Assembly (NCBI GenBank): GCA_019057635.1
Contig: DXJL01000099.1
Location: 1-48,567, forward strand
Direction of reading: 5' to 3'
Source: Candidatus Heimdallarchaeota archaeon
Lineage (GTDB): Archaea; Asgardarchaeota; Heimdallarchaeia; Hodarchaeales; Hodarchaeaceae
Length of the DNA stretch: 48,567 bases
Below, in pieces: positions 4,169 to 36,568 of the stretch. The notes beneath the pieces are model-generated. The model saw only the letters and a program-made list of their open reading frames with translations. It was not told where the DNA came from and did no database searches. The translations under genes and the position numbers were made by a program. Position 1 is the first letter of the stretch; each line of letters begins with the position of its first letter.

Positions 4169-4896
4169 TCATTTGAATTGTGAAATTGGTGTGGATTTCT
4201 GCTGATAATCTACAGAGGTTTTTTTTATTATTGATTCAGATGGAAACAAAAAGTAAAGATCTCCTTCGTGATACCCTAGTAGAGCTAACTTTACTATAAG
4301 AATCTCTCTCTCTATAACTGAATTTATCGGATACACGATAAAATTTAACTTTTTGGCATCACGATGGGATGAGTCACACATCTCCTATCTGGCAGGATAG
4401 AATAAATAGAGCGTGAACTGACCGATGGGACTACCTTTATGTCAGCAGATAAACGCTGAAGAATCAAACCATTTTTCATCAAGAATAGAGATAGAGAATG
4501 TAGTTTAAGATCTGATTCAGAATGAGAGGGTTTGAGTAGAGATACCTGTAGCGAAATTCCCCTCTCATAATCATAAAATGTTGTGATGAACTTCGCTTCA
4601 AGTCTGGTATCGTCTTTAATTAAATTATTAAATACATAACAAGTTATAAGCTGTTTACCAACTCCAATAGAGTCATTAACGTCCTCTATTCCTAAGTGTT
4701 CTTCCAAAATTGAAGAAGGGATGCAGGTTACAAGTTAGTCATCCCCTACTAAGTTAATTGCCGGGATAACATCAGTAAGAAGAAAATCCCCTCGTGTGCT
4801 TGAAAATGTAAAGGATTTATTCTGTTATTTCCCAGTAATTGAAAAATTAAGCAAGGAAGAACTAAGATTTTTTAGTATGCCTTCAATATTCTGCAT
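4169..4896 (-). pseudogene. Degraded hypothetical gene (two in-frame TAA, embedded TnpB-end remnant, frame change)
   Basis: GGTGA RBS and ATG at 4896 in frame with ORF 4345-4707 across two TAA codons; ORF 4169-4381 continues in another frame. Confidence 0.5.
4334..4464 (-). mobile_element. Old remnant of the TnpB 3' end / omegaRNA scaffold
   Basis: 4367-4396 matches 29467-29496 at 25/30 (inverted); ILQRLSADIKVVPSVSSRSIYSILPDRRCVTHP aligns ungapped to the TnpB tail ILQWYINSCQVIPTVSLPSVVAHLPDSGCVTRP; terminal-repeat-like AAATTTTATCGTG at 4334-4346. Confidence 0.75.
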
Positions 4897-26284: not shown

Positions 26285-28075
26285 TTAATCAACAGGCAAG
26301 AGTTTTGTTATAATCTTCCCGCAGGCTTCACATTTTTCAGGGGTTTTATTACGATCCTTAACCTCAAATACGTCGTTACAGCTGGTACATTTCCATTGAG
26401 AGGGTATGATTAGTTCCGATTCAATCTGAAGAATGATTGCTGTAAATTTATTCAACAATTGATCTGCTTTAGAGGTTACACTCCCAATATCGCTAGCTTT
26501 ACGTAATTCTTGGGGTGATTCAGAATCTTTTAGAGGATCAATATCAAGTATAAGATTGTCGATTGTAGCTTGGATATCACCGTAGTTGGGTAATGCCTCA
26601 ATCACATTTCTCTCTGTAATCCATGCAATAATAACTAAGAAATGATCCATCAATTCGTACGTGTCAGAAACAGCCGCTTCTTTCGAGACACTGTCAGGTA
26701 GCTTCTGAATAGTTAGAAAAAGTTGCTCAAAAAGGGGTTTCAAATCTGGTTGTAGTTTTAACTGGATATACAAGCGAAATATTGTCAAATAATGTGAAAA
26801 TTGCTTATCGGGGTCAGCTTTCGACATTATAGCGGTCGTTATGTCCCGAATTTGATCTGAAGGACAATCATGAGGAGATGTCGTTTCTCCAATCGGAGTT
26901 TTCCAACGGGATAAAATGACAATCTGTTTACCTCTGGCATAATCGAGATCTACATATTCCTGGGATTTATGCGTTAAACATTCAAAATAAGAGAAATTCG
27001 ACTTGTCATCTTCTGCAACAAGATGATCCGTACCTGCTTGACAATAACCACATTGCTCAATCGATTCCTCTTCCGAGCGATTAGTTTTACCACACGCGAT
27101 ACAATAAATATAGGTGTACTCTGTGGTGAACTTACCAAAAGTACCAGTCCCTGATACTTGAGAATCGTCCGCGGAGCGACGCATCCGGGCAAATAGTGAA
27201 TCGTCTTCATCTAACATTGCAGTAAGGGATGAGCCAAGACCTTCTGCCGCTTCTGCTCGCGCCTTTTCCTCTTCTTTCTTTTTCAGATACTCCTCTCTCT
27301 CCTCGGGAGACATCTTATCAATCATTTTCAGCTCTTTTACACGGTTTTGGATTCTACCCCTATCAACAGGGATTAAAGCCTCCAAGAAGTCAGGAGGGAG
27401 AGCTGTTATTTCTTCCATACTCATTTCTTCAAAATCTGTTCTTAATGCAGACATTGTACCGGCAGGTACAGTACTAGTGGGTATCATAATACTTCCTGGA
27501 GGAGGTGGTGGAGGAGGTGCCCCTCCAACCATGAGACGAGGTGGAGGGGGCGCTGAACTAGCTTGAATTTGGACTGCTTGGAGATTTCTTTGAATAGATG
27601 ACATTATTCTACGTTCTAATTCATCTAAAAATCCTGCGGTTTGTTCAAACTTAATTTTTTGATCTGCACGAAGTTTCTCTTGTTTTTCTAACGTTTTTCG
27701 GACTTCAGTAAGTAGATGTTCGGTCATAGCATCTAGACGCGGGAATAGATATTGGATAACATCATACATAATCCACTGCTCAACCTCTCCAAATTTCTTA
27801 AAGGGCTCTGGGCTTAACGCTCTGAGAGCTGGATATATTTCATTAGTATCCAAATTTCTTTGAGCCCATGACCAGATAGTGGATTTTTTCTTACGATCTC
27901 CCAGTAAATCTTCCGCTATTCGCTCAAAAGTTTGATTATCTAATCTACGCTGCACTAATTCGGTTTTTCGATCTTCTCTACTCAAAGAATACCATATGGC
28001 GTCAGCAGTAGTCATGGTGGTCATTTCGAAAAAGTAGTCGAGATTATTTATGTACGGACAATAAACATTGTTCAT
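26285..28075 (-). CDS. Multidomain protein: HTH, coiled coil, polyproline tract, charged helix, two zinc ribbons (start probably 28024 or 28015)
   Basis: TFERIAEDL...STIWSW, APPPPRLMVGGAPPPPPPPG, CIACG..CGYC, CTSC..CEACG. Confidence 0.85.
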   Translation of the reverse strand: MNNVYCPYINNLDYFFEMTTMTTADAIWYSLSREDRKTELVQRRLDNQTFERIAEDLLGDRKKKSTIWSWAQRNLDTNEIYPALRALSPEPFKKFGEVEQWIMYDVIQYLFPRLDAMTEHLLTEVRKTLEKQEKLRADQKIKFEQTAGFLDELERRIMSSIQRNLQAVQIQASSAPPPPRLMVGGAPPPPPPPGSIMIPTSTVPAGTMSALRTDFEEMSMEEITALPPDFLEALIPVDRGRIQNRVKELKMIDKMSPEEREEYLKKKEEEKARAEAAEGLGSSLTAMLDEDDSLFARMRRSADDSQVSGTGTFGKFTTEYTYIYCIACGKTNRSEEESIEQCGYCQAGTDHLVAEDDKSNFSYFECLTHKSQEYVDLDYARGKQIVILSRWKTPIGETTSPHDCPSDQIRDITTAIMSKADPDKQFSHYLTIFRLYIQLKLQPDLKPLFEQLFLTIQKLPDSVSKEAAVSDTYELMDHFLVIIAWITERNVIEALPNYGDIQATIDNLILDIDPLKDSESPQELRKASDIGSVTSKADQLLNKFTAIILQIESELIIPSQWKCTSCNDVFEVKDRNKTPEKCEACGKIITKLLPVD

Positions 28076-28100
28076 ATAAACGTATACATATTGTTCATAT
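28067..28100 (-). promoter_or_regulatory. Direct repeat ATTGTTCATAT x2 around a TATA-like box upstream of the polyproline gene
   Basis: 11 bp perfect copies at 28067-28077 and 28090-28100; TTTATA on the minus strand at 28075-28080. Confidence 0.4.
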
Positions 28101-28325
28101 GGTAAGACTGAAAAAACATCATTAGATCGAGGTCAATCGGTTGATTGTCGTAACTCTATCAAAATCTGAATCAAATGAAGCAATTCGATTAATGTTTAAA
28201 ACTCGCATGATTAAATTTGTCTGACAACGGGTATTGATAAGTACAGATCATGAGGAAAAAGGGGTCATTTTCGTCACATTTGTTATTTTCACTGATCTTT
28301 CTCTGTCTCGAGCTTATAAGAGCGA

Positions 28326-29527
28326 GTGAACCTTCTTGGAATGGGAATGCGTACCAAGAAACACTCTCACCCCCAGTTAGCTATCCGAATGCAGATGAAA
28401 CCGCGGCCCATTTTTACGGATTTGTGCACCTGCGCCAAAAATCTGTATAATCGCGCCACCTATGAGGTACGCCAGGAATTCTTTAAGACGGGGAAATGGA
28501 TACAATATACGAGCTTGTATCATCGCCTTAAACACGAACCAGTGTATCTAGCATTAAAGGACATTTCGGATAGTTATTTACCGCAACAAGTCCTCCGACA
28601 GGTAGAACAAATCTGGCGGAGCTTTTTCAATGGACTGAAGGCATGGAAAACCGATCCGACCAAATTTCAGACCCGGCCCCGAGCGCCCAGGTATAAACCC
28701 AAGAATGGGCTACACATGCTGAACTTTCCCCGCCCACGGGTGCGAATTCGGGAGAAACAGATTCTTTTTGCGAGGAATCTCATGGCACGCGGCTTTCCAA
28801 CTTTTTCGCTGGGAACCCTTCCATTAACGGTAGAAACATGTGTGGGCGCTCGATTGGTACCGTATTATGATCTATTTGTGGTAGAAATCCTCTATGAAGT
28901 GCAAGTTCACCCTTTTCCCGCTTCTGATTCGTCTTCTCCCCGAGCTATGGGAATAGATCTCGGGCTTAACAACCTCGTAACTACGTCAGACGGCTTACTC
29001 GTCAAAGGCGGGGTGGGGAAGACCATTAATCAGTGGTATAACAAACAACTTGCCCATTATCGATCGCTAGCAACCACTCATAGGCAACAGTTTACCACTC
29101 GCCGGATTCAAGGTCTTCAGCGAGTGCGGATGAACCGCCTTCAGAATTTCTTCCATCAAACCTCCAGGAGGATTATCACTAACTGTTTACAGCACAATAT
29201 CGATACATTAGTCATCGGTTACAATGCGAGGTGGAAACAGCACTGTAACTTAGGAAAGCGCACCAATCAGTCTTTTGTTCAAATCCCCTTCTTCAAATTT
29301 ATTAATATGCTCGAGTATAAAGCGAAACTTGTTGGGATGACGGTACTGCGCGTAAATGTGGTTATCACCTTAATGCTGATTATAATACTGCCTGTAATAT
29401 CCTTCAGTGGTATATTAACAGCTGCCAAGTAATCCCTACAGTCAGTTTACCTTCAGTGGTGGCTCACTTGCCGGATAGCGGATGTGTGACTCGTCCTGTC
29501 CAGAACTCTTTTTCCAGAGTTGTCTGA
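28326..29527 (+). pseudogene. tnpB: TnpB RNA-guided endonuclease, internally deleted and frameshifted
   Basis: AKNLYN, RuvC-I GIDLGLNNL, LEYKA; after VLRVN the frame loses the zinc finger, while CGYHLNADYNTACNI (RuvC-III) continues in another frame from 29357 to TGA at 29527. Confidence 0.9.
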
Positions 29528-29541
29528 CAAATTTAGTCATG
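29426..29541 (+). ncRNA. Predicted omegaRNA (reRNA) scaffold / right end of the TnpB element; boundaries approximate
   Basis: Overlaps the tnpB 3' end as in known TnpB loci; blocks CAAGTARTCCCT and CCGGATAGCGGATGTGTGACTCRTCCTGTCCAGAAC are conserved in other copies. Confidence 0.6.
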
Positions 29542-29634
29542 AAGGACAAAAAAGCCAATAATAGAGAATTTCAAAATGTTTAGTGTATATTACCAGCAAT
29601 ATTGCGCATCTATCTGTGCTAATATTATTCGTGG

Positions 29635-30045
29635 TTATTCAATTACTGGGATCAGTCCTTTAAAATGGCTATCAAAAGTAGCAATGTAGACATTGCTCTC
29701 GAAGAGCTTTGCCATGACCAAAAGGGAGCAATCAGTAAATGAAAGTCCATTTTCAAAATATTTGAGAAATAATTCCCAAGTAGCTAAAAATTCTGTTTCA
29801 TTTAAATGAAGTAAAATAATTCGTGGTGAATCAAAAATATAATTTCCAATATCCTTAACTAAGTTTAGATCATGAGTTCTTACTAGTGTTAAGGTAACTG
29901 TTTCATCAAAAACAAAATTAGAAACAATTATTCTACCGAATTTTCCTGATAAACATTGTCTCATGATTTCTGTAGCTTTAATGTGATTAATATCATCAGA
30001 ATTACGTATAGCAAGTATTAACCCAGTATCTAAGAAAACAACCAT
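29635..30045 (-). CDS. PIN-domain (VapC-like) toxin
   Basis: VFLDTG, VFDETVT, LSFTDC, IATFDSHF acidic PIN motifs. Confidence 0.92.
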   Translation of the reverse strand: MVVFLDTGLILAIRNSDDINHIKATEIMRQCLSGKFGRIIVSNFVFDETVTLTLVRTHDLNLVKDIGNYIFDSPRIILLHLNETEFLATWELFLKYFENGLSFTDCSLLVMAKLFESNVYIATFDSHFKGLIPVIE

Positions 30046-30057
30046 GGAAATTCCTCA

Positions 30058-30318
30058 CTAATATAGATATTCATCCACTGTTGTAGAAGTGTCTTTAATA
30101 CCCCATTTTTCTGGTGTTTGGAGCAATTTCCAAGCAGAATCCTCCTCTAATTTTGGTAGATGATGATCATTTACTTCTTCTTCAAATTTTGTTGCTTCCC
30201 GTCTAATTAGTTGACCTAAAATTTCTTTCTTTGTCATCTTTTTCCCCATTAATATATAACGGGCTCTTAATCTGTCTAAAAGATCTTCATCATCCTTATT
30301 TAATCGAACTGTTGTCAT
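30058..30318 (-). CDS. Putative VapB-like antitoxin (RHH-type N-terminus)
   Basis: MTTVRL...DTSTTVDEYLY directly upstream of the PIN gene; ATG at 30318 with GTGAG upstream. Confidence 0.75.
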   Translation of the reverse strand: MTTVRLNKDDEDLLDRLRARYILMGKKMTKKEILGQLIRREATKFEEEVNDHHLPKLEEDSAWKLLQTPEKWGIKDTSTTVDEYLY

Positions 30319-30642
30319 GGGTCTCACTTTAATCAATATTAATTTAATAATTTGGAATCTTGAGCTCTCTATTATGTACAGACAGAGAAATCTACAAGTA
30401 TAAAAGTATATTTGTATCCCCAATGATTTTCACGGAAATTAAATAATATATTTAGATTGGCCTCGTTTGCTTTTAATAAGACATGTGGAGTGAGTCCAGA
30501 ATTCGGTAATTGAAACTGAAAGGAAATATAAAATCCTCCAGATCAAAATTCTAATCAACTTCTCTTGATACGTCATTGTTTACTGTGTTTCTGGAAGATG
30601 ATAGATGTTCTCACAAATACTGGGTAACTCTAGTGTGTCTGT

Positions 30643-31833
30643 TCAAAGGATTTTTCGGAGGATGTAATGACTCGCAAGATAACAAATGAGAACTGTTAAA
30701 GGAAAGACAAGCGTAAGTTTAACAATAGGGAAAAGCGGGATGGAGGCAAAAACAAGGGATATCGCAACAAGGATGGGTGCATGAACGAGGTACATATGAA
30801 AGGAGCTAGCAGATAGGTTCTGGAGCAAAATACCTTGATTGTTGAATTTTAAATAAAAAATCGGAATTAAAACAAAAATCATTCCCATACACATGATATT
30901 GTCGACCAGAGCAAAGACAAGAGCATGCAAATTGGGCCCTCCAAATACAACACTGTAATCTGCATCTATTCCCAGAAATATCAAAAAATACGTAAAAAAT
31001 AATACAACTGTTGCTATCATGATACTAGACCAGACTTTGATATGATCTTTCGATATCTTCTCAAACCAATCGTATCGAGCGGTGATGACACCGACCACGA
31101 ACATCATTAAATACTGAATCAAATAACCGAATGGGATTCCCAATGGAAATCTGTCTATGGGAGAAATTAAACGAACTAAAAAAGCAACGCATCCTAAGAT
31201 AATAGCTAAAAGGAGTAAATAGATATTTCTTGGTATGGATAATTCCTTCGGGATGTATTTCCGGAACGAATCAGACTTTGTTATCTGACGCCAAAGCGTA
31301 TAGACGAATGTGAATATGAGCAAGACGGAGAGAAACCACATAGGACCAGTATCTGTTAGGAAGTCTAGTACTCTTTCCAGTGATTGAAATTGGCTTAAAT
31401 AAAAATCTAGAAGAGATCCTTGTAGGTTTGGATTTGTATTCCAGGGTTGAATTCCTAACTCGGCTAGTATATAAAACAGAATAGGATTAATTAGCATAAT
31501 ATAGAGAAGGATAGGAATACCGAGACGAGTAAGTCGTTCTTTCCAGAAAGCAGTGACCCCTTTTCGATCATAACTTTTTGGAGTAAGAAAACCAGCAAGA
31601 AGGAAGAATAAGCCGAGAAGAGAAGCTTGAAAAATCCCTCCAAGTGAGGCTAATGTTTGAAAAAATATTGTACTGAAAAGATCAAGTGTATTTTCCTCAA
31701 TATAGTACCACCAACCTGACCCCTCATATGTGACCCTCGCATGATTGAAAATCACGAGAATAGCAAATAAGAGCTTAATATTATCAAGGAAGAGGAAGCG
31801 AGGTTTCTTAACTGCAGTAGATTCTGTATTCAT
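30643..31833 (-). CDS. Acyltransferase 3 family (OpgC/MdoC-like) membrane protein
   Basis: RFLFLDNIK..LVIFNH, FFLLAG, ERLTRLGIP, GPMWFL, MYLVH. Confidence 0.9.
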   Translation of the reverse strand: MNTESTAVKKPRFLFLDNIKLLFAILVIFNHARVTYEGSGWWYYIEENTLDLFSTIFFQTLASLGGIFQASLLGLFFLLAGFLTPKSYDRKGVTAFWKERLTRLGIPILLYIMLINPILFYILAELGIQPWNTNPNLQGSLLDFYLSQFQSLERVLDFLTDTGPMWFLSVLLIFTFVYTLWRQITKSDSFRKYIPKELSIPRNIYLLLLAIILGCVAFLVRLISPIDRFPLGIPFGYLIQYLMMFVVGVITARYDWFEKISKDHIKVWSSIMIATVVLFFTYFLIFLGIDADYSVVFGGPNLHALVFALVDNIMCMGMIFVLIPIFYLKFNNQGILLQNLSASSFHMYLVHAPILVAISLVFASIPLFPIVKLTLVFPLTVLICYLASHYILRKIL

Positions 31834-32088
31834 AAGAGCGATTCACCTTTGAGTAATTCCCGGTAGAGAGGTGATATCATAAGTGTTATACTTAAATAAT
31901 TTCGGAATAAAAAACGTGTATTACCACTGGTTATAGCTCATCTGTTATATGGTACCGTTGGATTTGTGAATTATGCAATAAAATTCAGAAATCCTCTCAG
32001 GACAGATTCTTTTTTTTAACAAACTCAAATTTTCTCGATTGGGGTCGAAGAGAAGTTTTTGATCTCCAAATAATTCCAAAAGAGTGTA

Positions 32089-32928
32089 TTGGAGGTCATT
32101 TTAATGCCCTTTAAATTCGAATTGAAACTGTTACTTAACGAAAGTATACCTTCTTATTGGTTCATTTTTCGTGAAAACTTGTTATTAGTAGAAATATTAG
32201 ATGATTCGGCCTCTATACCTTTTAACTCAAATTTAAGCGAATTTAATATGTCTTTAGAACTGAAACAACCAATCTATTTTGGGACATTTGAAAATATCCC
32301 TTGCCATTTTTTTGAAGCTTCCAATGATTTTGAAATTCCAAAGAAAATGTCATTTCAAAGTATCCGCAATTTATATGGTCTATTAAACGAAGACTTACTC
32401 TGGATAGCAGGAAGAGCTATTCAACTATTGGTTTGGGATAAAAATTCTCAATATTGTGGTCGATGTGGGACTCCTACAGAGATTGAGTTTGATGAACGAG
32501 CAAAAATATGTCCAGAATGCAGCTTACTTGTTTTTCCCCGAATTTCTCCCGCAATAATAGTTGGAATTATTGATCAAAAGAAAAAGAAGATATTATTGGC
32601 CAATGGAACACGTTTCCCCGCTAGCTTCTATAGTGTTCTTGCAGGTTTTGTTGAACCAGGTGAGACGCTTGAGGAATGTGTTAGAAGAGAAATCGCTGAA
32701 GAAGTAGGAATCGAAGTTAAAAATATTCGTTACTTTGGTAGCCAATCTTGGCCTTTTCCTGATTCTCTTATGATAGGTTTTCTTGCAGATTACGCAAATG
32801 GCCAAATTACAATAAATCCAATTGAGATAAACGATGCAAACTGGTTTACTGCAGATGATCTCCCTCAAATACCTGGTGAAATCAGTATTGCTAGAAAAAT
32901 CATTGACTGGTTTGTGCAAAATTACTGA
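32089..32928 (+). CDS. nudC: NAD(+)/NADH diphosphatase NudC
   Basis: YCGRCG..CPEC zinc ribbon, Nudix box GFVEPGETLEECVRREIAEEVG, SQSWPFPDS. Confidence 0.93.
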   Translation: MEVILMPFKFELKLLLNESIPSYWFIFRENLLLVEILDDSASIPFNSNLSEFNMSLELKQPIYFGTFENIPCHFFEASNDFEIPKKMSFQSIRNLYGLLNEDLLWIAGRAIQLLVWDKNSQYCGRCGTPTEIEFDERAKICPECSLLVFPRISPAIIVGIIDQKKKKILLANGTRFPASFYSVLAGFVEPGETLEECVRREIAEEVGIEVKNIRYFGSQSWPFPDSLMIGFLADYANGQITINPIEINDANWFTADDLPQIPGEISIARKIIDWFVQNY

Positions 32929-33021
32929 AATCCACTTCAAAGATTTAGAAAGTTGTTTATGCATAAAAAAAGAATACCAATGCACTTTGACTACATTGGA
33001 AATTATAATTCTGCATTTAAT

Positions 33022-33876
33022 TTATTTAAATTCTCGTTTCTGGAAGTAAGGATTATCGAAAATCAGCAAAGCTAGGAGAAGTGAAACTACCCCAATTATA
33101 ATAATGAAGATCACTTGTCCAAAGGGGTAAGCGCCATAGCCTACGTTGATGATATCATCTACAATTTTGATTCCATCCAGGTAATAGTAAAAGGAAGTTA
33201 ACTGGAGCATATCTGCCATAGCGGGATCAGCTATTCTAAGCAGACCTGCAATCGTTTTGAGAATGTAAGAACCTCCAAGGAACAAGCCACCAAATCCCAG
33301 TGTTTTTCCAGTATCCATGAAGACGACGGAGATAAGTATTACCATACAGGTAAGAGACAAATAAAGAATCCATCGACTCAATAGTCCTAAAAAGTAGGCT
33401 TCCAGTCCACGAGGATTGAATTTAATTCCAGGAATAATTACTGATGCTAAAATTGCTGCAGCAAATGTAAAAATCGGATAAGAGAGAGTGATAGTGATAA
33501 ATGCAAAGACTTTCTCCAAAAGGAATCGCCATCGGGGAACGGGGAAGCTCAATATGAAATCCAGACTTCCACTATCCACTTCACGTGTAATACACTGTAC
33601 GCCAAACAGTAGAATGAGGCCCATAAAGAAAATATCAGATATAATGAACAACTCCATAGTAAGCAATGATTCAAGAGAGGTCAAACCTACTCCTTCACCA
33701 AGTAGGGCCTGATAGATTGGAAGTTCCATCATCTCTTGCAGCATTTCTACATACGGCTCAAAAGAGGGCCAGATTGCTACCATTAAGAACGAAAATACTG
33801 CCGTCACAAAGGAGATTGCAGACCAAGAAAACCATTTTTTACGCAATTGTTTTGTGTAAATGTGAAACATATTCAT
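33022..33876 (-). CDS. ABC-2 type transporter permease
   Basis: ITREVDSGSLDFILSFPVPRWRFLLEK motif, 6 TM. Confidence 0.88.
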   Translation of the reverse strand: MNMFHIYTKQLRKKWFSWSAISFVTAVFSFLMVAIWPSFEPYVEMLQEMMELPIYQALLGEGVGLTSLESLLTMELFIISDIFFMGLILLFGVQCITREVDSGSLDFILSFPVPRWRFLLEKVFAFITITLSYPIFTFAAAILASVIIPGIKFNPRGLEAYFLGLLSRWILYLSLTCMVILISVVFMDTGKTLGFGGLFLGGSYILKTIAGLLRIADPAMADMLQLTSFYYYLDGIKIVDDIINVGYGAYPFGQVIFIIIIGVVSLLLALLIFDNPYFQKREFK

Positions 33877-34838
33877 TTCTCCTCCGCTAACAAATCTAAT
33901 TCATCTTTATAGTAAGTAAGAAAGATATCTTCTAAACTACTGTCTTCTAAAGTCATCCTCTTGACCCGCCGCGAAGTAACAAACTTCAATAGATCATTCA
34001 CATCCTCTTTAACCTTAACAAAAAAGGTATTGGCTTTTTTCTCGACACTAAATACATTCGGAATAGCTTGGAATTCATCTAGGTCGGGGATCTCCCCATT
34101 GACGAATTCAACTGACAGAAGCTGCATGGATTTTCTTCGGAGTTCTTTAACAGTTTCAATAACGATGATTTTTCCCTTCCTAATGATACCCACGCGATCA
34201 CAAATTGCTTGCACTTCAGTTAGATTGTGACTCGAGAGAAAAATCGTTTTGTCCTCATCTCGCATCTGTAGGAGTAAACGATGGAATCTCGTAGCCATCA
34301 AGGGGTCTAGACCACTTGAGGGTTCATCTAAGATGACAAAGTCAGGATTGGAAGCTAAAGCTGTAATAATTATTACTTGCTGACGATTCCCTGTCGATAA
34401 GCTTTTGAAGTCGAGAGTGAGGTCTACCTTAAAAATAGACTTCAACTTTTTCAGAAATTTCTGATCGATGAGACGAAATTTCCCAAAATACGAAATTATC
34501 TCCTCTCCTGTGAAATTTCCATATAAATCAATTTCACTGCGAATAAAACCAAGGCTCTCTTTAATTTCTAAGGCATCTTTCAGGTAATCGAGACCGTTAA
34601 TTTTTATTGTCCCTGATTGGATGGATAGAAATCCAAGAATAGAACGGATAGTAGTCGTCTTCCCTGCGCCATTGGGTCCAAGAAATCCGAAAATTTCTCC
34701 TTTCTTTACTGAGAAACTCGCATCATCCACTGCAACGATACGATGCCCAATTTTACGGGGTCCTAATTGAAATTCCCTTCCATAGACCTTGGTTAAGTTC
34801 GAAACTTGAAGAACAGTTACATTCTTACTGGCACTCAT
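33873..34838 (-). CDS. ABC-2 type transporter ATP-binding protein
   Basis: GPNGAGKT, LSTGNRQ, ILDEPSSGLDP, SSH. Confidence 0.93.
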   Translation of the reverse strand: MSASKNVTVLQVSNLTKVYGREFQLGPRKIGHRIVAVDDASFSVKKGEIFGFLGPNGAGKTTTIRSILGFLSIQSGTIKINGLDYLKDALEIKESLGFIRSEIDLYGNFTGEEIISYFGKFRLIDQKFLKKLKSIFKVDLTLDFKSLSTGNRQQVIIITALASNPDFVILDEPSSGLDPLMATRFHRLLLQMRDEDKTIFLSSHNLTEVQAICDRVGIIRKGKIIVIETVKELRRKSMQLLSVEFVNGEIPDLDEFQAIPNVFSVEKKANTFFVKVKEDVNDLLKFVTSRRVKRMTLEDSSLEDIFLTYYKDELDLLAEEK

Positions 34839-35000
34839 TTTTTAATGCTCCACATTGGTTGCGAAAGTGATACAATTTATACAAATATAAATACTTATTT
34901 ACGTAGTGCCTTCTTCTTCTTCTTTTGTCGCGATAGTATTCACAACAAGCTTGGATGAGAGATTCAACGAGAGATTCTTTTCAATCCAATATTAAAAATA

Positions 35001-35061
35001 TACATCGCAAAATACACGTCTGTTTTATTAAAGCCAGCTTTCGTCAAATACAAGTAATAAT
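35001..35061 (+). repeat. 61 bp dispersed repeat, copy A
   Basis: Ungapped 46/61 match to 37787-37847; core TTAAAGCYRGCTTTCGTCAAATA. Confidence 0.7.
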
Positions 35062-35132
35062 TGGAGGTGTTATTGAAGCAACTCGAGTAATGAAAAAAGA
35101 TTAATTATATTACAAGGTTAATGCGAATAGCT

Positions 35133-35495
35133 CATGACTAAATTTGTCAGACAACGCAGTAATACCGCGTTCTGGACAGGATGAGTCACACATCCGCTAT
35201 CCGGAAAAAAACCAATTCAACTGGTGAATTTATTTTCGAGGGACTACTTGTTACTAGGGGATTGGCATTCTCTTTTGATTCCTCGAATTTCTGAAACCGC
35301 TGGCCTTACTCCCCTCACCTTTGACGGGTAACTCGTCTAACGTAGTTACGAGGGAGGTATTCCAAAAACTTTGAGCTCTTTTCTATTTATCACCTCCAAT
35401 TATTAAGGATTTAAGGGGAGATGTCCTTTTAAGGCTTTCAGAGAGAGAGTAAGGTGAAAATGAGAATATATATTTGTCGTACAAATTTGATCATG
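35133..35495 (-). mobile_element. 363 bp non-autonomous (MITE-like) derivative of the TnpB element
   Basis: 35133-35155 identical (23/23) to the right repeat; 35169-35204 matches 29471-29506 at 35/36; 35302-35353 homologous to tnpB 28973-29024; opposite repeat at 35473-35495 (18/23). Confidence 0.8.
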
Positions 35496-35527
35496 TACGA
35501 GACCATACCTAAAACAAAGATACTGAA

Positions 35528-36568
35528 TTGAATCTGATGCACTGCCCACTTCTTGATCAAGGAATGAAACCTGGTAAGTGCTTAACATCGACAAGTACAG
35601 GTGATTTGAAAAAAGCTTGTGAAGTGACCTTGAAAATTGAAAATGGAAATTGCAAGCGATTAATTAAATCAATACACCTCTCCAGACCCGAGGATTATTT
35701 GAGTATATACCAAAGTGGATGCAATCACGATTGTCTCAAATGCCACTCTGCTGATTTTTCTAAAAAGGTAAATGGCAATTGGTTTAGTAATGATAGTATA
35801 GCTAAAATTGCTGCAGAGTATTCTTCTTACGTTACTGTCACCGAACCGCGTTCTAGGGCAACCATGTGGCATGCAGATGATCTATGTCTTCATTGTGGGT
35901 CTTGTATTACATATGGCAAACGATCTCCTCAATGCCCTAATAAGCTAGAACCTTCACAGGTAGTTCTTTCACCACAAGGGTTTGGTCCTGCTCGAAATAT
36001 CGTAGCTTTTACGGGAGGAGATCTAACATGCAATCCTGACTATTACGCCAGAGTATCTGAAAGGATTAAGGAACACACCAATGGAAAATTATGGGTATTA
36101 ATTGAGACAAATGGATATGCATTGACACGTCAGAACCTAGAAGTATTGAAAGCGAGTCAGGTAGACTCCTACTGGTTGGATATTAAGGCCTATGATAATA
36201 AGGTCTACAAAAAATTATGTGGAACTTCTAATACAACAGTTTTAGAGTCTGTCAAACACATTGTTGATTTAGAGTTTACTTTGGAAGTGTTAACGTTATT
36301 TATTCCAGGATATGTAGAAACTGATCAACATATTCAAATTGCCCGTTTAATTGCCAACATTAATCCTGATATACCAACCTCACTCCTTGCTTTCTTTCCA
36401 ACATATAAATTAGCTAATAACCGTCCTCCTACTTTTGATGAGATGTTAACAAGTTATTCTGCTATGAAAGGTGAAGGAATAAAGAACTTGAGATTAGGAA
36501 ATCTCGGTGTCTTCGCAAAAACACCTGAAGAGCAGCTCAAAATATATGAACTGCAAAAGAATGAGTAG
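35528..36568 (+). CDS. Radical SAM protein (PFL-activase/AmmeMemoRadiSam-related)
   Basis: GCNHDCLKCH, FTGGD, ETNG, WLDIK; extra CLHCGSC insert. Confidence 0.88.
   Translation: MNLMHCPLLDQGMKPGKCLTSTSTGDLKKACEVTLKIENGNCKRLIKSIHLSRPEDYLSIYQSGCNHDCLKCHSADFSKKVNGNWFSNDSIAKIAAEYSSYVTVTEPRSRATMWHADDLCLHCGSCITYGKRSPQCPNKLEPSQVVLSPQGFGPARNIVAFTGGDLTCNPDYYARVSERIKEHTNGKLWVLIETNGYALTRQNLEVLKASQVDSYWLDIKAYDNKVYKKLCGTSNTTVLESVKHIVDLEFTLEVLTLFIPGYVETDQHIQIARLIANINPDIPTSLLAFFPTYKLANNRPPTFDEMLTSYSAMKGEGIKNLRLGNLGVFAKTPEEQLKIYELQKNE

Follow-up and report, generated by a model that had tools for sequence, protein, structure and literature searches.

Two members of an Asgard archaeal transposon family: a TnpB-only insertion sequence with terminal inverted repeats and its miniature derivative

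Cas12 and the eukaryotic Fanzors descend from TnpB nucleases, and Asgard archaea are the archaeal lineage placed nearest to eukaryotes. How TnpBs travel shapes their evolution. Several known carriers resemble the family described here. IS200/IS605 elements of the IS1341 group and PATEs, the latter encoding omegaRNAs used in trans (bioRxiv 10.1101/2023.03.14.532601), share with it a single tnpB, an omegaRNA-like structure that overlaps the 3′ end and runs up to the right boundary, no cis transposase, possibly the lack of a target duplication, and a short target motif at the left end. They also have gene-less derivatives that retain the RNA region and core deletions that leave tiny end-to-end remnants. 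Unlike IS200/IS605 elements, however, the present family has 23-bp inverted repeats to the last base, no same-strand left-end hairpin was seen, and four of the five arm-rich genomes yielded no Y1 transposase. IS607 elements are similar in their TnpBs (the nearest relatives with a known partner, at 36% and 35% identity), in scarless insertion and in a TAM-like motif one position off the right-end terminus. The present family differs in having no tnpA in cis, in ending in CATG rather than GG, and in its exact terminal inverted repeats, whereas IS607 termini are described in PMC6188088 as unrelated, with subterminal motifs.

The initial annotation of this locus assumed that prokaryotic TnpB carriers lack terminal inverted repeats (TIRs). 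This premise is outdated: Altae-Tran et al. 2023 (PMC10691335) report that each of the six DDE-associated TnpB branches is flanked by inverted terminal repeats and that solo TnpBs share such ends. The DDE-1 to DDE-6 TnpBs (e.g. the IS630-linked ones) are likewise prokaryotic TnpBs within symmetric inverted-repeat ends, with the tnpB 3′ end near the transposon end and solo copies presumed to be mobilized in trans; in contrast, no DDE partner with family arms was found here in 41 genomes, and the target is CATG, not TA. Eukaryotic TIR transposons that carry Fanzors also bear a TnpB-family nuclease as cargo, but the present protein has no special similarity to Fanzors (E = 4e-7 for the mimivirus Fanzor2 chain, compared with 5e-17 to 6e-10 for higher-ranked TnpB/Cas12f chains), and no eukaryote-type transposase is co-encoded. 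We regard the element as an unusual variant of known TnpB carriers, prokaryotic TnpBs with inverted ends having been reported in 2023. No earlier description of the family was found in the literature, although it may already be among the end alignments in the supplement to PMC10691335; the accessible parts of a 2026 archaeal IS survey (PMC13343696) and of a Heimdallarchaeum mobile-element paper (PMC8813620) do not mention TnpB.

Two members of a single Asgard transposon family, a TnpB-only insertion sequence and a ~360-bp miniature derivative, lie in the window, the whole 48,567-nucleotide stretch that was analysed. Their features are as follows:

28206–29541, plus strand: whole element, 1336 bp including both CATG, a defective version of a ~1424-bp TnpB-only insertion sequence.
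28206–28228, plus strand: left-end (LE) arm, CATGATTAAATTTGTCTGACAAC, located by 23-mer search; its first four bases are the CATG target/boundary.
28229–28325, plus strand: left-end interior, a TATA-like A/T-rich stretch and then a conserved TCATTTTCG block, recognized by comparison of left ends.
28326–29432, plus strand: tnpB pseudogene, read from its translation; RuvC-I (MGIDLG) is retained and the frame shifts after ...KLVGMTV.
29350–29351, plus strand: junction of an 88-nt internal deletion, placed by global alignment and equal to positions 1146–1233 of the intact C72 element.
29426–29541, plus strand: conserved structured block, an omegaRNA-like scaffold defined from 52 distinct right ends, overlapping the TnpB C-terminal codons and stopping at the element boundary.
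29497–29529, plus strand: long terminal hairpin B, from the consensus fold and covariation.
29519–29541, plus strand: right-end (RE) arm, GTTGTCTGACAAATTTAGTCATG, located by 23-mer search and alignment with other right ends.
35133–35495, minus strand: miniature derivative (MITE/PATE-like), 363 bp, inverted, recognized by its arms and by 6 further copies at 85–90% identity.
35133–35250, minus strand: right arm and omegaRNA-like block of the miniature copy, from alignment with other right ends; 95% complementary to 29468–29506.
35301–35353, minus strand: tnpB remnant of the miniature copy, 53 nt, 81% complementary to 28973–29025 (codons just past RuvC-I).
35473–35495, minus strand: left arm of the miniature element, reading CATGATCAAATTTGTACGACAAA on that strand, from the arm search and end alignment.

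The arms of the tnpB element lie 1290 nt apart and are complementary at 21 of 23 positions (91%), in agreement with the initial annotation. When the window was searched with up to 3 mismatches allowed, the 23-mer matched exactly three times (28206 on the plus, 29519 on the minus and 35133 on the plus strand), compared with 0.00 expected from 100 shuffles. The second element, which had been annotated as bounded by the same ends, is real and does carry these arms; its orientation is inverted, with the right-end-type arm at 35133–35155 and 5 mismatches to the search 23-mer in the left arm. It has 75 nt of right end and the 53-nt internal piece in common with the tnpB element, and other miniature copies retain this tnpB remnant. 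As had also been noted, no transposase ORF lies between the window arms, tnpB being the sole long ORF.

Apart from one 88-nt deletion, the window element is 93.9% identical to an intact copy in the host genome (G000:C72:31895–33318, contig C72). As a result of this deletion the reading frame shifts and the copy loses the RuvC-II glutamate, the zinc finger and RuvC-III. Contigs from other copies part from the window sequence at the junction, with loose ends at 29351 and 29358. The window tnpB matched the Pfam family OrfB_IS605 (3e-17, 63 bits), and its TNB/zinc-ribbon domain fell below the cut-off because of the deletion. In contrast, the intact homologues are ORFs of 429 and 423 aa with both OrfB_IS605 and the TNB zinc-ribbon domain, and intact family copies scored above the cut-offs for each (65–75 bits for OrfB_IS605, 83–88 bits for Cas12f1-like_TNB). 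The 429-aa copy contains IDLG, NEAYTSQQCSQCG, CRKCG and NADYNAA, the D-E-D and zinc-finger motifs, which align to solved TnpB/Cas12f chains in the E/zinc-finger/D region; the window copy lacks the E, the zinc finger and the third D. This copy is dead. Intact tnpB copies, however, are under purifying selection: dN/dS was 0.09–0.17 in 21 pairs among 7 ORFs (dS up to 1.8), while the arms stayed nearly invariant.

We then followed the arms beyond the window. The host genome (G000, 3.19 Mb) contains 58 arm matches, compared with 0 for a reversed-pattern control, and 13 clean arm pairs, five of 1336–1424 bp and eight of 359–363 bp. Near-full ~1.4-kb tnpB copies number about 7 (two intact), in addition to fragments at contig ends; miniature copies, each roughly 360 bp, number about 25–30; and about 45 sites are filled. 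Of 41 related genomes, 12 carry the arms, which are abundant only in G000, G002, G020, G018 and G004, all genomes compared being incomplete MAGs (for G000, 214 contigs at 91.6% completeness). The family was also found in related Heimdall/Hodarchaeota MAGs. The arm pattern matched only 3 metagenome contigs and had 0 matches in a viral contig collection. In this search of the genome and related assemblies, a check that the initial annotation had proposed, the paired arms of G000 and of five stretches of G002 enclosed only tnpB or the miniature core.

In the host genome the LE-type arm pattern, CATGATY...GTCNGACAA, was found at 18 classified left ends, and the RE arm occurs with 0–1 mismatch in 30 of 40 right-end-type ends. 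In intact copies the tnpB stop codon falls inside the RE arm (GTT GTC TGA). Full-length left ends share the motif GTATTTAT/GTATTGAT and a TCATTTTC block, and positions 28229–28325 are a putative tnpB/omegaRNA promoter region. The TTGAT pentamer at 28234, put forward earlier as a TAM, is not conserved in other left ends.

Comparison of filled and empty alleles, the second proposed check, was informative at both window loci. One metagenome contig of run X4 connects 28205 directly to 29538, omitting 1332 nt (1336 − 4; the empty allele skips 28206–29537); the short side of this joint spans only 26 nt, at 90% likeness. Contigs of the same run join 35131 to 35491, skipping 359 nt (363 − 4), and a contig of run X3 likewise lacks the miniature copy, so that empty alleles of this insertion occur in two runs. 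Since all these alleles keep exactly one CATG, both window elements are insertion polymorphisms. Natural populations are polymorphic for this multi-copy family. No usable orthologous empty sites were obtained from related genomes, whose flanks are non-syntenic and only 67–87% identical.

The flanks of the 13 paired elements are unrelated outside CATG...CATG, which, with the single CATG of the empty alleles, bears out the earlier statement that there is no target duplication apart from this motif. Two CATGs at filled sites and one at empty sites fit insertion at a motif without duplication and, equally, a 2–4-bp duplication. The outermost base differs in 3 of 13 pairs, an observation that speaks against simple duplication of all 4 bp but leaves room for a 2-bp duplication of AT; across ends, TATG replaces CATG in 2 of 18 left ends, and CATA (3) or CATC (1) replaces it among 38 right ends. 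Of 54 right ends, 33 have an A immediately after the CATG, a flank asymmetry not expected from a symmetric TIR-binding transposase alone.

These alleles also bear on a model in which the tnpB cassette occupies the loop of a resident 33-bp palindrome, its target, with the conserved arm as a guide against the repeat family. Solo palindromes of this length do exist (three in G002, one on a metagenome contig and one degenerate copy in the host genome), the inner arm ends would form a 13-bp palindrome if joined, and the structured block has the right arm at its 3′ end. However, the empty alleles of both window insertions hold a bare CATG and no palindrome, and in G000 a single degenerate solo stands against ~45 filled sites. 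An LE-type half is joined to an RE-type half in four of the five solos (the fifth, L045, is LE-type on both sides), a composition expected for deletion between the shared core of the arms; these rare palindromes look like LE–RE fusion remnants. Moreover, 11 of the 23 arm nucleotides are paired within hairpin B and not free as a guide, and an arm-matching guide would match its own template and every other copy. This model, proposed in the initial annotation, is contradicted at both window loci, and we consider it scarcely credible.

The last ~116 nt of the right ends form a conserved, covarying omegaRNA-like structure that ends exactly at the boundary. In an alignment of 52 distinct right ends from full-length and miniature copies, canonical pairs occupied 90.1% of cells, compared with a mean of 80.2% in shuffles (maximum 82.1%, 500 shuffles) and 36–54% for slid partners. 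The covariation is carried by hairpins B and C and by helix P2. Hairpin B has a base of TGTC/GACA, AGA/TCT and AAC/GTT and a covarying apical stem with 92.9% canonical pairs (66.5% in shuffles) and double-sided changes at 6 of 6 pairs; the 3′ side of the hairpin is made up of the inner 11 nt of the right arm. Miniature copies too keep the structure, and sequence conservation ends at CATG. No Rfam match was found for 28100–29700 (E ≤ 1), or for the arm-mimicking host region. G·U pairs are frequent on the tnpB-sense strand. The structure could act as single-stranded DNA rather than RNA.

Another proposal is that the family is a canonical IS200/IS605 element of the IS1341 group moved as single-stranded DNA by a Y1 TnpA, with CATG as the left target/cleavage site and the right cleavage site, and the right subterminal hairpin as the TnpA recognition structure. 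A hairpin that ends ~12 nt short of the right boundary, a 4-nt motif 5′ of the left end, a possible lack of duplication and an insertion orientation that is asymmetric relative to the flanks would all suit such a mechanism, as would the gene-less derivatives and fusion remnants, which recall the 52-bp remnant of Haloquadratum ISHwa23 (PMC3119063). In addition, the distant relatives L071, L101 and L107 adjoin a Y1 gene. Against these points, Y1_Tnp (PF01797) was absent from profile searches of G000, G002, G020 and G004 and present in G018 only as a broken copy, the left ends examined showed no matching same-strand hairpin, and true inverted repeats out to the last base are neither needed nor explained by a Y1 mechanism. 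We judge this proposal very unlikely.

The boundaries suggest how TnpB might tell empty from occupied sites. None of the 18 classified left ends of G000, nor of the 9 in other genomes, has T immediately before the CATG, compared with 32% T in the genome; this count covers ends classifiable by their internal signature, and one unclassified arm (C189) has T there. The right end, in contrast, always reads T-CATG. From these sequences we infer a predicted TAM of 5′-VCATG. The contrast between VCATG and TCATG parallels that in an IS607 IStron, whose TAM is TGGG and right end TCGG (bioRxiv 10.1101/2023.11.20.567912).

Because no copy contains a transposase, mobilization must be in trans. Neither the arm pairs of G000 nor five stretches of G002 enclosed any gene other than tnpB or the miniature core, and no transposase lay between family arms in G000, at the arm coordinates of 40 related genomes, on 3 metagenome contigs or in the viral collection. 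DDE_3, Cas1 and IS110-type DEDD had zero matches in G000, and its DDE_Tnp_1 and rve matches are single-copy, with no arms nearby. DDE genes of this genome lie on contigs C201 and C135. Across the 41 genomes, neither Y1 nor resolvase genes co-occurred consistently with arms. Altogether, no DDE, serine or tyrosine enzyme could be linked to the arms.

Relatives of the protein offer a further clue. The nearest TnpBs with a known partner are serine-linked: the family TnpB is 36% identical to an IS607-type TnpB on contig C54 of the host genome and 35% identical to that of L063, where a resolvase lies immediately upstream. In a quick TnpB tree, the Asgard clade sits on a long branch outside both the serine-linked groups and the Y1-linked group. 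The serine-linked relatives are one argument for conservative site-specific recombination, in which an IS607-like serine transposase or a tyrosine recombinase would act across the CATG core and duplicate nothing; the ends would close into a circle, and their junction, GACAAATTTAG-TCATGA-TCAAATTTGTC, an 11-6-11 palindrome, would recombine with CATG(A) targets. Outside its arm pairs, the host genome has IS607-type TnpA genes on contigs C54 and C56, two in all, and a tyrosine recombinase gene on C157. The scarless single-CATG empty sites also fit, variation at the outermost base suggests that only the inner AT/ATG is common, like a crossover core, and the TAM-versus-self pattern resembles the IS607 IStron. 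However, according to PMC6188088, IS607 elements have no terminal inverted repeats and end in GG. The IS607 copies resident in this genome differ in their ends and show no arm-like sequence, and searches of the arm-bearing genomes G020 and G004 yielded no resolvase genes. A search of 41 genomes for circle junctions or tandem abutted ends returned only 3 weak, chance-like places in 1 genome, all ordinary flanks. Conservative recombination is a possible explanation, but we hold it only tentatively.

The reading that we favour, and consider probable, is a non-autonomous TnpB/omegaRNA element with TIRs that is moved in trans and has the predicted TAM VCATG. A transposase encoded elsewhere would bind both arms as double-stranded DNA and move the unit between CATG sites. 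That this enzyme is a DDE-type cut-and-paste transposase duplicating AT or CATG is a serious possibility, though short of an even chance; conservative serine or tyrosine recombination across the CATG core is almost as likely, a Y1 enzyme is very unlikely, and a class other than these seems rather unlikely. Of the first model in the initial annotation, a multi-copy TIR family in an Asgard archaeon with insertion polymorphisms and no cis transposase stands, and the trans-acting transposase was not found; capture of TnpB by a pre-existing TIR transposon goes beyond what this evidence supports.

In the favoured reading, the structured block would be the omegaRNA scaffold, transcribed from a putative left-end promoter, with a 5′ end near the CAAGTAGTCCC block, ~116 nt before the right end. 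The guide would be the unique flank just past the right-end CATG, and TnpB of intact copies may load omegaRNAs from intact, dead and miniature copies alike. TnpB could then cut empty CATG+flank sites, with the element restored through recombination, while its own end, TCATG, would spare occupied sites. The right arm is both part of the predicted RNA and complementary to the left arm. It is conceivable, but improbable, that the arms serve no known transposase class, so that the family would be moved by an unrecognised Hodarchaeal/Heimdall enzyme or TnpB–omegaRNA itself would take part in end recognition, as an archaeal forerunner of the Fanzor-in-TIR arrangement.

The family provides a natural, currently mobile TnpB system in an Asgard lineage, with exact inverted-repeat ends, a strict CATG target and gene-less, RNA-only copies, and its covarying putative guide-RNA scaffold is built partly from the repeat itself. 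The TAM prediction (VCATG versus self TCATG) and the defined 116-nt scaffold are testable. A DDE transposase or an enzyme of unknown class as the mover would enlarge the as yet small group of prokaryotic TnpBs carried between TIRs, whereas a serine enzyme would alter the textbook account of IS607-type ends. Finally, a role of CATG as a gene start was considered and rejected: 1 of 33 right ends and 3 of 16 left ends have a terminal ATG that opens an ORF of at least 80 codons, compared with 12.6% of all CATG sites.

The initial annotation had placed a tnpB gene between two inverted 23-bp arms and proposed that a second element carries the same paired ends. A motif search located both 23-mers at the proposed positions. 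With up to three mismatches allowed, the arm motif has three matches in the window (28206 +, 29519 -, 35133 +), and shuffled sequences are expected to contain none. A repeat finder recovered the ends of the tnpB element as an inverted pair (91% complementary), and the second, miniature element was borne out, in the opposite orientation:

28206-29541 (+), tnpB element
28206-28228, left arm of the tnpB element
28326-29432, ORF encoding TnpB
29519-29541, right arm of the tnpB element
35133-35495 (-), miniature element

The first 75 nt of the miniature element are the reverse complement of the right end of the tnpB element (95% over 39 nt), a 53-nt piece of it matches tnpB at 28973-29025, and its far arm is more diverged (five mismatches). 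Both elements are intergenic. The tnpB element, with a G+C content of 45% (genome, 36%), lies upstream of a 596-aa gene of unknown function (26285-28075 (-)), 131 bp from its start, while the miniature element sits between divergently transcribed ABC-transporter ATPase and radical-SAM genes (34838 (-) and 35528 (+)).

The ORF matches Pfam OrfB_IS605 at 3e-17, with a zinc-ribbon domain under the Pfam cut-off. Relative to the intact reference element on contig C72 (93.9% identity), the window copy lacks one stretch of 88 nt, deleted between 29350 and 29351. Because this deletion shifts the frame after KLVGMTV and removes the RuvC-II glutamate, the zinc finger and RuvC-III, the window tnpB is a pseudogene; its ends and 3' structured region are still intact. 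Intact ORFs encode 429 aa (C72) and 423 aa (C133), and the family protein aligns with solved TnpB and Cas12f chains over the catalytic and zinc-finger region. Seven intact ORFs, compared in all 21 pairs, gave dN/dS values of 0.09-0.17 and dS values reaching 1.8, a divergence over which 30 of 40 right-end-type ends show at most one mismatch in the right arm.

These elements belong to an arm-bounded TnpB family that is real, recently mobile and well delimited. The host assembly (G000; 3.19 Mb, 214 contigs, 91.6% complete, with the window as C67) contains 58 arms at up to three mismatches (reversed control pattern, 0) and 70 at up to five. Of 13 clean arm pairs, five span 1336-1424 bp and the other eight 359-363 bp, giving two size classes, and many further right ends have a drifted left arm. 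BLAST with the C72 element returned seven near-full copies at 70-100% identity (C35, C67, C69, C72, C133, C152, C179) plus contig-end fragments; the miniature element has six near relatives at 85-90% identity and more distant copies. Among 41 related genomes, 12 contain arms, with control patterns at 0 in all, and the arm-rich ones are of the host's genus: G002 (53), G020 (19), G018 (11) and G004 (6). The nearest TnpBs, 69-95% identical, come from Ca. Heimdallarchaeota B3_Heim and Ca. Hodarchaeota records; the next relatives are at most 35% identical. The host is accordingly an Asgard archaeon, in agreement with the initial annotation. We also observed mini-derivatives of ~66-68 bp (G000:C88 about 4744-4811, G000:C145 about 546-612), fusions to which the left arm contributes its first ~10 nt and the right end its last ~55-60 nt, keeping hairpin A in part and hairpin B and the arm intact (hairpins as described below). 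In one miniature copy, G000:C22:23762-24660, an opposite-strand fragment of an IS4/IS5-type DDE gene appears to have truncated the left side.

Contigs from four metagenome runs were aligned to window 27500-36500 at 90% likeness, yielding three informative joints. The joint of 28205 to 29538, which skips 1332 nt (1336 - 4), depends on one contig of run X4 whose short side has just 26 nt, at 90% likeness; a second X4 contig joins 35131 to 35491, skipping 359 (363-4). A contig of run X3 likewise lacks the miniature element and differs by six letters at the site. Because these contigs skip the elements, each insertion is a natural polymorphism whose empty site reads flank-CATG-flank. The flanks of the 13 arm pairs have nothing in common outside CATG...CATG.

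Two origins had been proposed: a terminal-inverted-repeat transposon family that carries TnpB and omegaRNA and is moved in trans, or a TnpB element inserted into the loop of a resident palindrome. The second is rejected, as neither empty site contains a palindrome; the first, in an Asgard archaeon, is supported in outline. Solo 33-bp palindromes do occur, three in G002 (C8:64499-64531, C35:1462-1494, C50:11147-11179), one on a metagenome contig (L129:1114-1146) and a degenerate one at G000:C84:3071-3103, and against roughly 45 filled sites in G000 they are rare. In four of these solos a left-end-type half (CATGATC...), a core and a right-end-type half (...TAGTCATG) are joined. Since the palindromic core TTGTC-N-GACAA is present in both arms, deletion between two cores yields exactly this arrangement, and these four are probably deletion remnants. 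A like core deletion left a 52-bp remnant of a Haloquadratum TnpB element (PMC3119063).

The TTGAT at 28234-28238, suggested as the target-adjacent motif (TAM), is not conserved among other left ends. The base 5' of the left CATG is A in 9, G in 6, C in 3 and T in none of 18 classified G000 left ends, and A in 6, C in 2, G in 1 and T in none of nine from other genomes (genome T content, 32%); these counts took only ends with internal signatures, one excluded arm, on C189, having T there, and the L129 row was dropped from the nine as the right half of a solo palindrome. The base 3' of the right CATG is A at 23 of 38 right ends in G000 and 10 of 16 elsewhere, and the element's own right end is invariably T-CATG. 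By analogy with an IS607 IStron, whose TAM (TGGG) and right terminus (TCGG) are described as differing at one position, with the occupied site spared (bioRxiv 10.1101/2023.11.20.567912), we predict VCATG as the family TAM. Within CATG, the outermost base is more variable than the inner ones (TATG at 2/18 left ends; CATA at three and CATC at one of 38 right ends), and the two copies differ there in 3/13 pairs. This variation argues against a plain 4-bp target duplication and fits a shared AT, as a 2-bp duplication or 2-bp crossover. Separately, a conserved non-coding host stretch (G000:C13:2250-2402; L132, on G002:C82, 1380-1515) terminates in GTCGTGGATCAAATTTGATCATG, a mimic of the arm's outer half. 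Both genomes have an element inserted at this stretch or no more than 27 nt away, and the stretch, for which Rfam gave no match, may be either a site of preferred insertion or an older remnant.

We compared 52 distinct right ends, full-length and miniature, from G000, G002, Hodarchaeota records and metagenome contigs. All have the layout CAAGTAGTCCC - hairpin C - AACCTGCC - GGATAG - hairpin A (GGATG/CATCC) - TGTCCAG - hairpin B - tail - CATG. After alignment with MAFFT, RNAalifold paired AGTAGTCC with GGATAGCG as an outer helix and extended the base of hairpin B by pairing TGTC, AGA and AAC with GACA, TCT and GTT of the right arm. Canonical pairs fill 90.1% of cells, compared with a mean of 80.2% (maximum 82.1%) in 500 column shuffles, a generous control given that the 52 rows are mutually related, and 36-54% with slid partners. 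The signal lies in the hairpin B apical stem (92.9% vs 66.5% shuffled), hairpin C (74% vs 54%) and helix P2 (91% vs 75%); hairpin A, the outer helix and the basal stem are invariant and therefore uninformative on pairing. Pairing is kept across several unrelated stem sequences, and G.U pairs are frequent on the tnpB-sense strand. The coding sequence of full-length copies runs through this block, which supplies the C-terminal tail of TnpB (...LPDSGCVTHPVQNSFSRVV), and finishes at a stop codon that lies within the arm. The non-coding miniatures conserve the block just as well, and the constraint therefore acts on the nucleic acid. From its sequence the block looks like an omegaRNA scaffold, with no match among Rfam families. 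In this model the right arm would have two roles, as a strand of hairpin B (its inner 11 nt) and as a linker of about 12 nt (AAATTTAGTCATG) between the hairpin and the flank. At window 29493, in the 3' strand of hairpin A, the window has G where all other aligned contigs have A, changing a U-A pair to U.G.

As initially annotated, the element has no transposase gene: nothing inside the arm pairs except tnpB could mobilise it. Searches of G000 (91.6% complete) found no Y1 transposase, Cas1, DDE_3 or IS110-type gene. Three DDE_Tnp_1 matches, weak or single-copy, and one rve all lack arms, and there is one tyrosine recombinase. Two IS607-type elements (L049, G000:C54:5792-7584; L050, G000:C56) encode a serine TnpA directly upstream of tnpB (195 and 168 aa, respectively), with no arm-like sequence at their ends. 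The right end of the C54 element has two direct copies of ACATTTG(T)GATAAC, loosely like the arm core. Across the 41 genomes, all incomplete MAGs, none of the five arm-rich ones has an intact Y1 gene (absent in four, broken in one), and resolvase is missing from arm-rich G020 and G004. At 44 distant-relative loci (138 neighbouring ORFs scanned) we found one upstream resolvase, three Y1 and zero DDE genes, the rest being solo. In a quick tree, the Asgard TnpB clade sits on a long branch, attached at the node connecting two serine-linked groups to a large bacterial group that has Y1 neighbours; the best pairwise identity outside the family is 36%, to the host's own IS607-type TnpB.

In its gene, its omegaRNA-like block, the lack of a cis-encoded transposase and the retention of this block by gene-less derivatives, the family resembles non-autonomous IS605-type elements, for which these are described as standard features (bioRxiv 10.1101/2023.03.14.532601). 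Inverted terminal repeats at prokaryotic TnpBs are reported for six DDE-associated branches and for solo copies whose ends are of that kind (PMC10691335). Our literature search, which stopped short of that paper's supplements, where the family might be listed, found no description of this arm-bounded family, its CATG target, the role of its repeat within the RNA structure, its confinement to one Heimdall/Hodarchaeal genus or its lack of any recognisable partner enzyme. Its main interest lies in the Heimdall/Hodarchaeal host lineage and in a mobilising enzyme not recognised in the host genome. Inverted ends may be less rare in this region of the TnpB tree than the textbook view holds, because two distant solo tnpBs (32-35% identical) also lie between inverted repeats: L062:3231-4599 from a Ca. 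Altarchaeum MAG (a perfect 16-nt repeat) and L074:1805-3211 from a Bacillota MAG (22/23 over 23 nt), with putative boundaries in both cases.

A second, unrelated TnpB-only family in G000 has copies of ~1662 bp with ORFs of 426-435 aa, and therefore at least three TnpB lineages reside in this genome. A gene-less derivative of ~485 bp, in 8-9 copies, has end sequences in common with the full copies:

C104:14209-15871, C139:3638-5298, C152:3625-5286, full copies (~1662 bp)
C75:3153-3651, C75:8509-8988, C82:48169-48653, C111:7756-8232, gene-less copies (~485 bp)
C137:1603-2109, C150:25309-25795, C153:783-1258, C210:13903-14389, gene-less copies (~485 bp)
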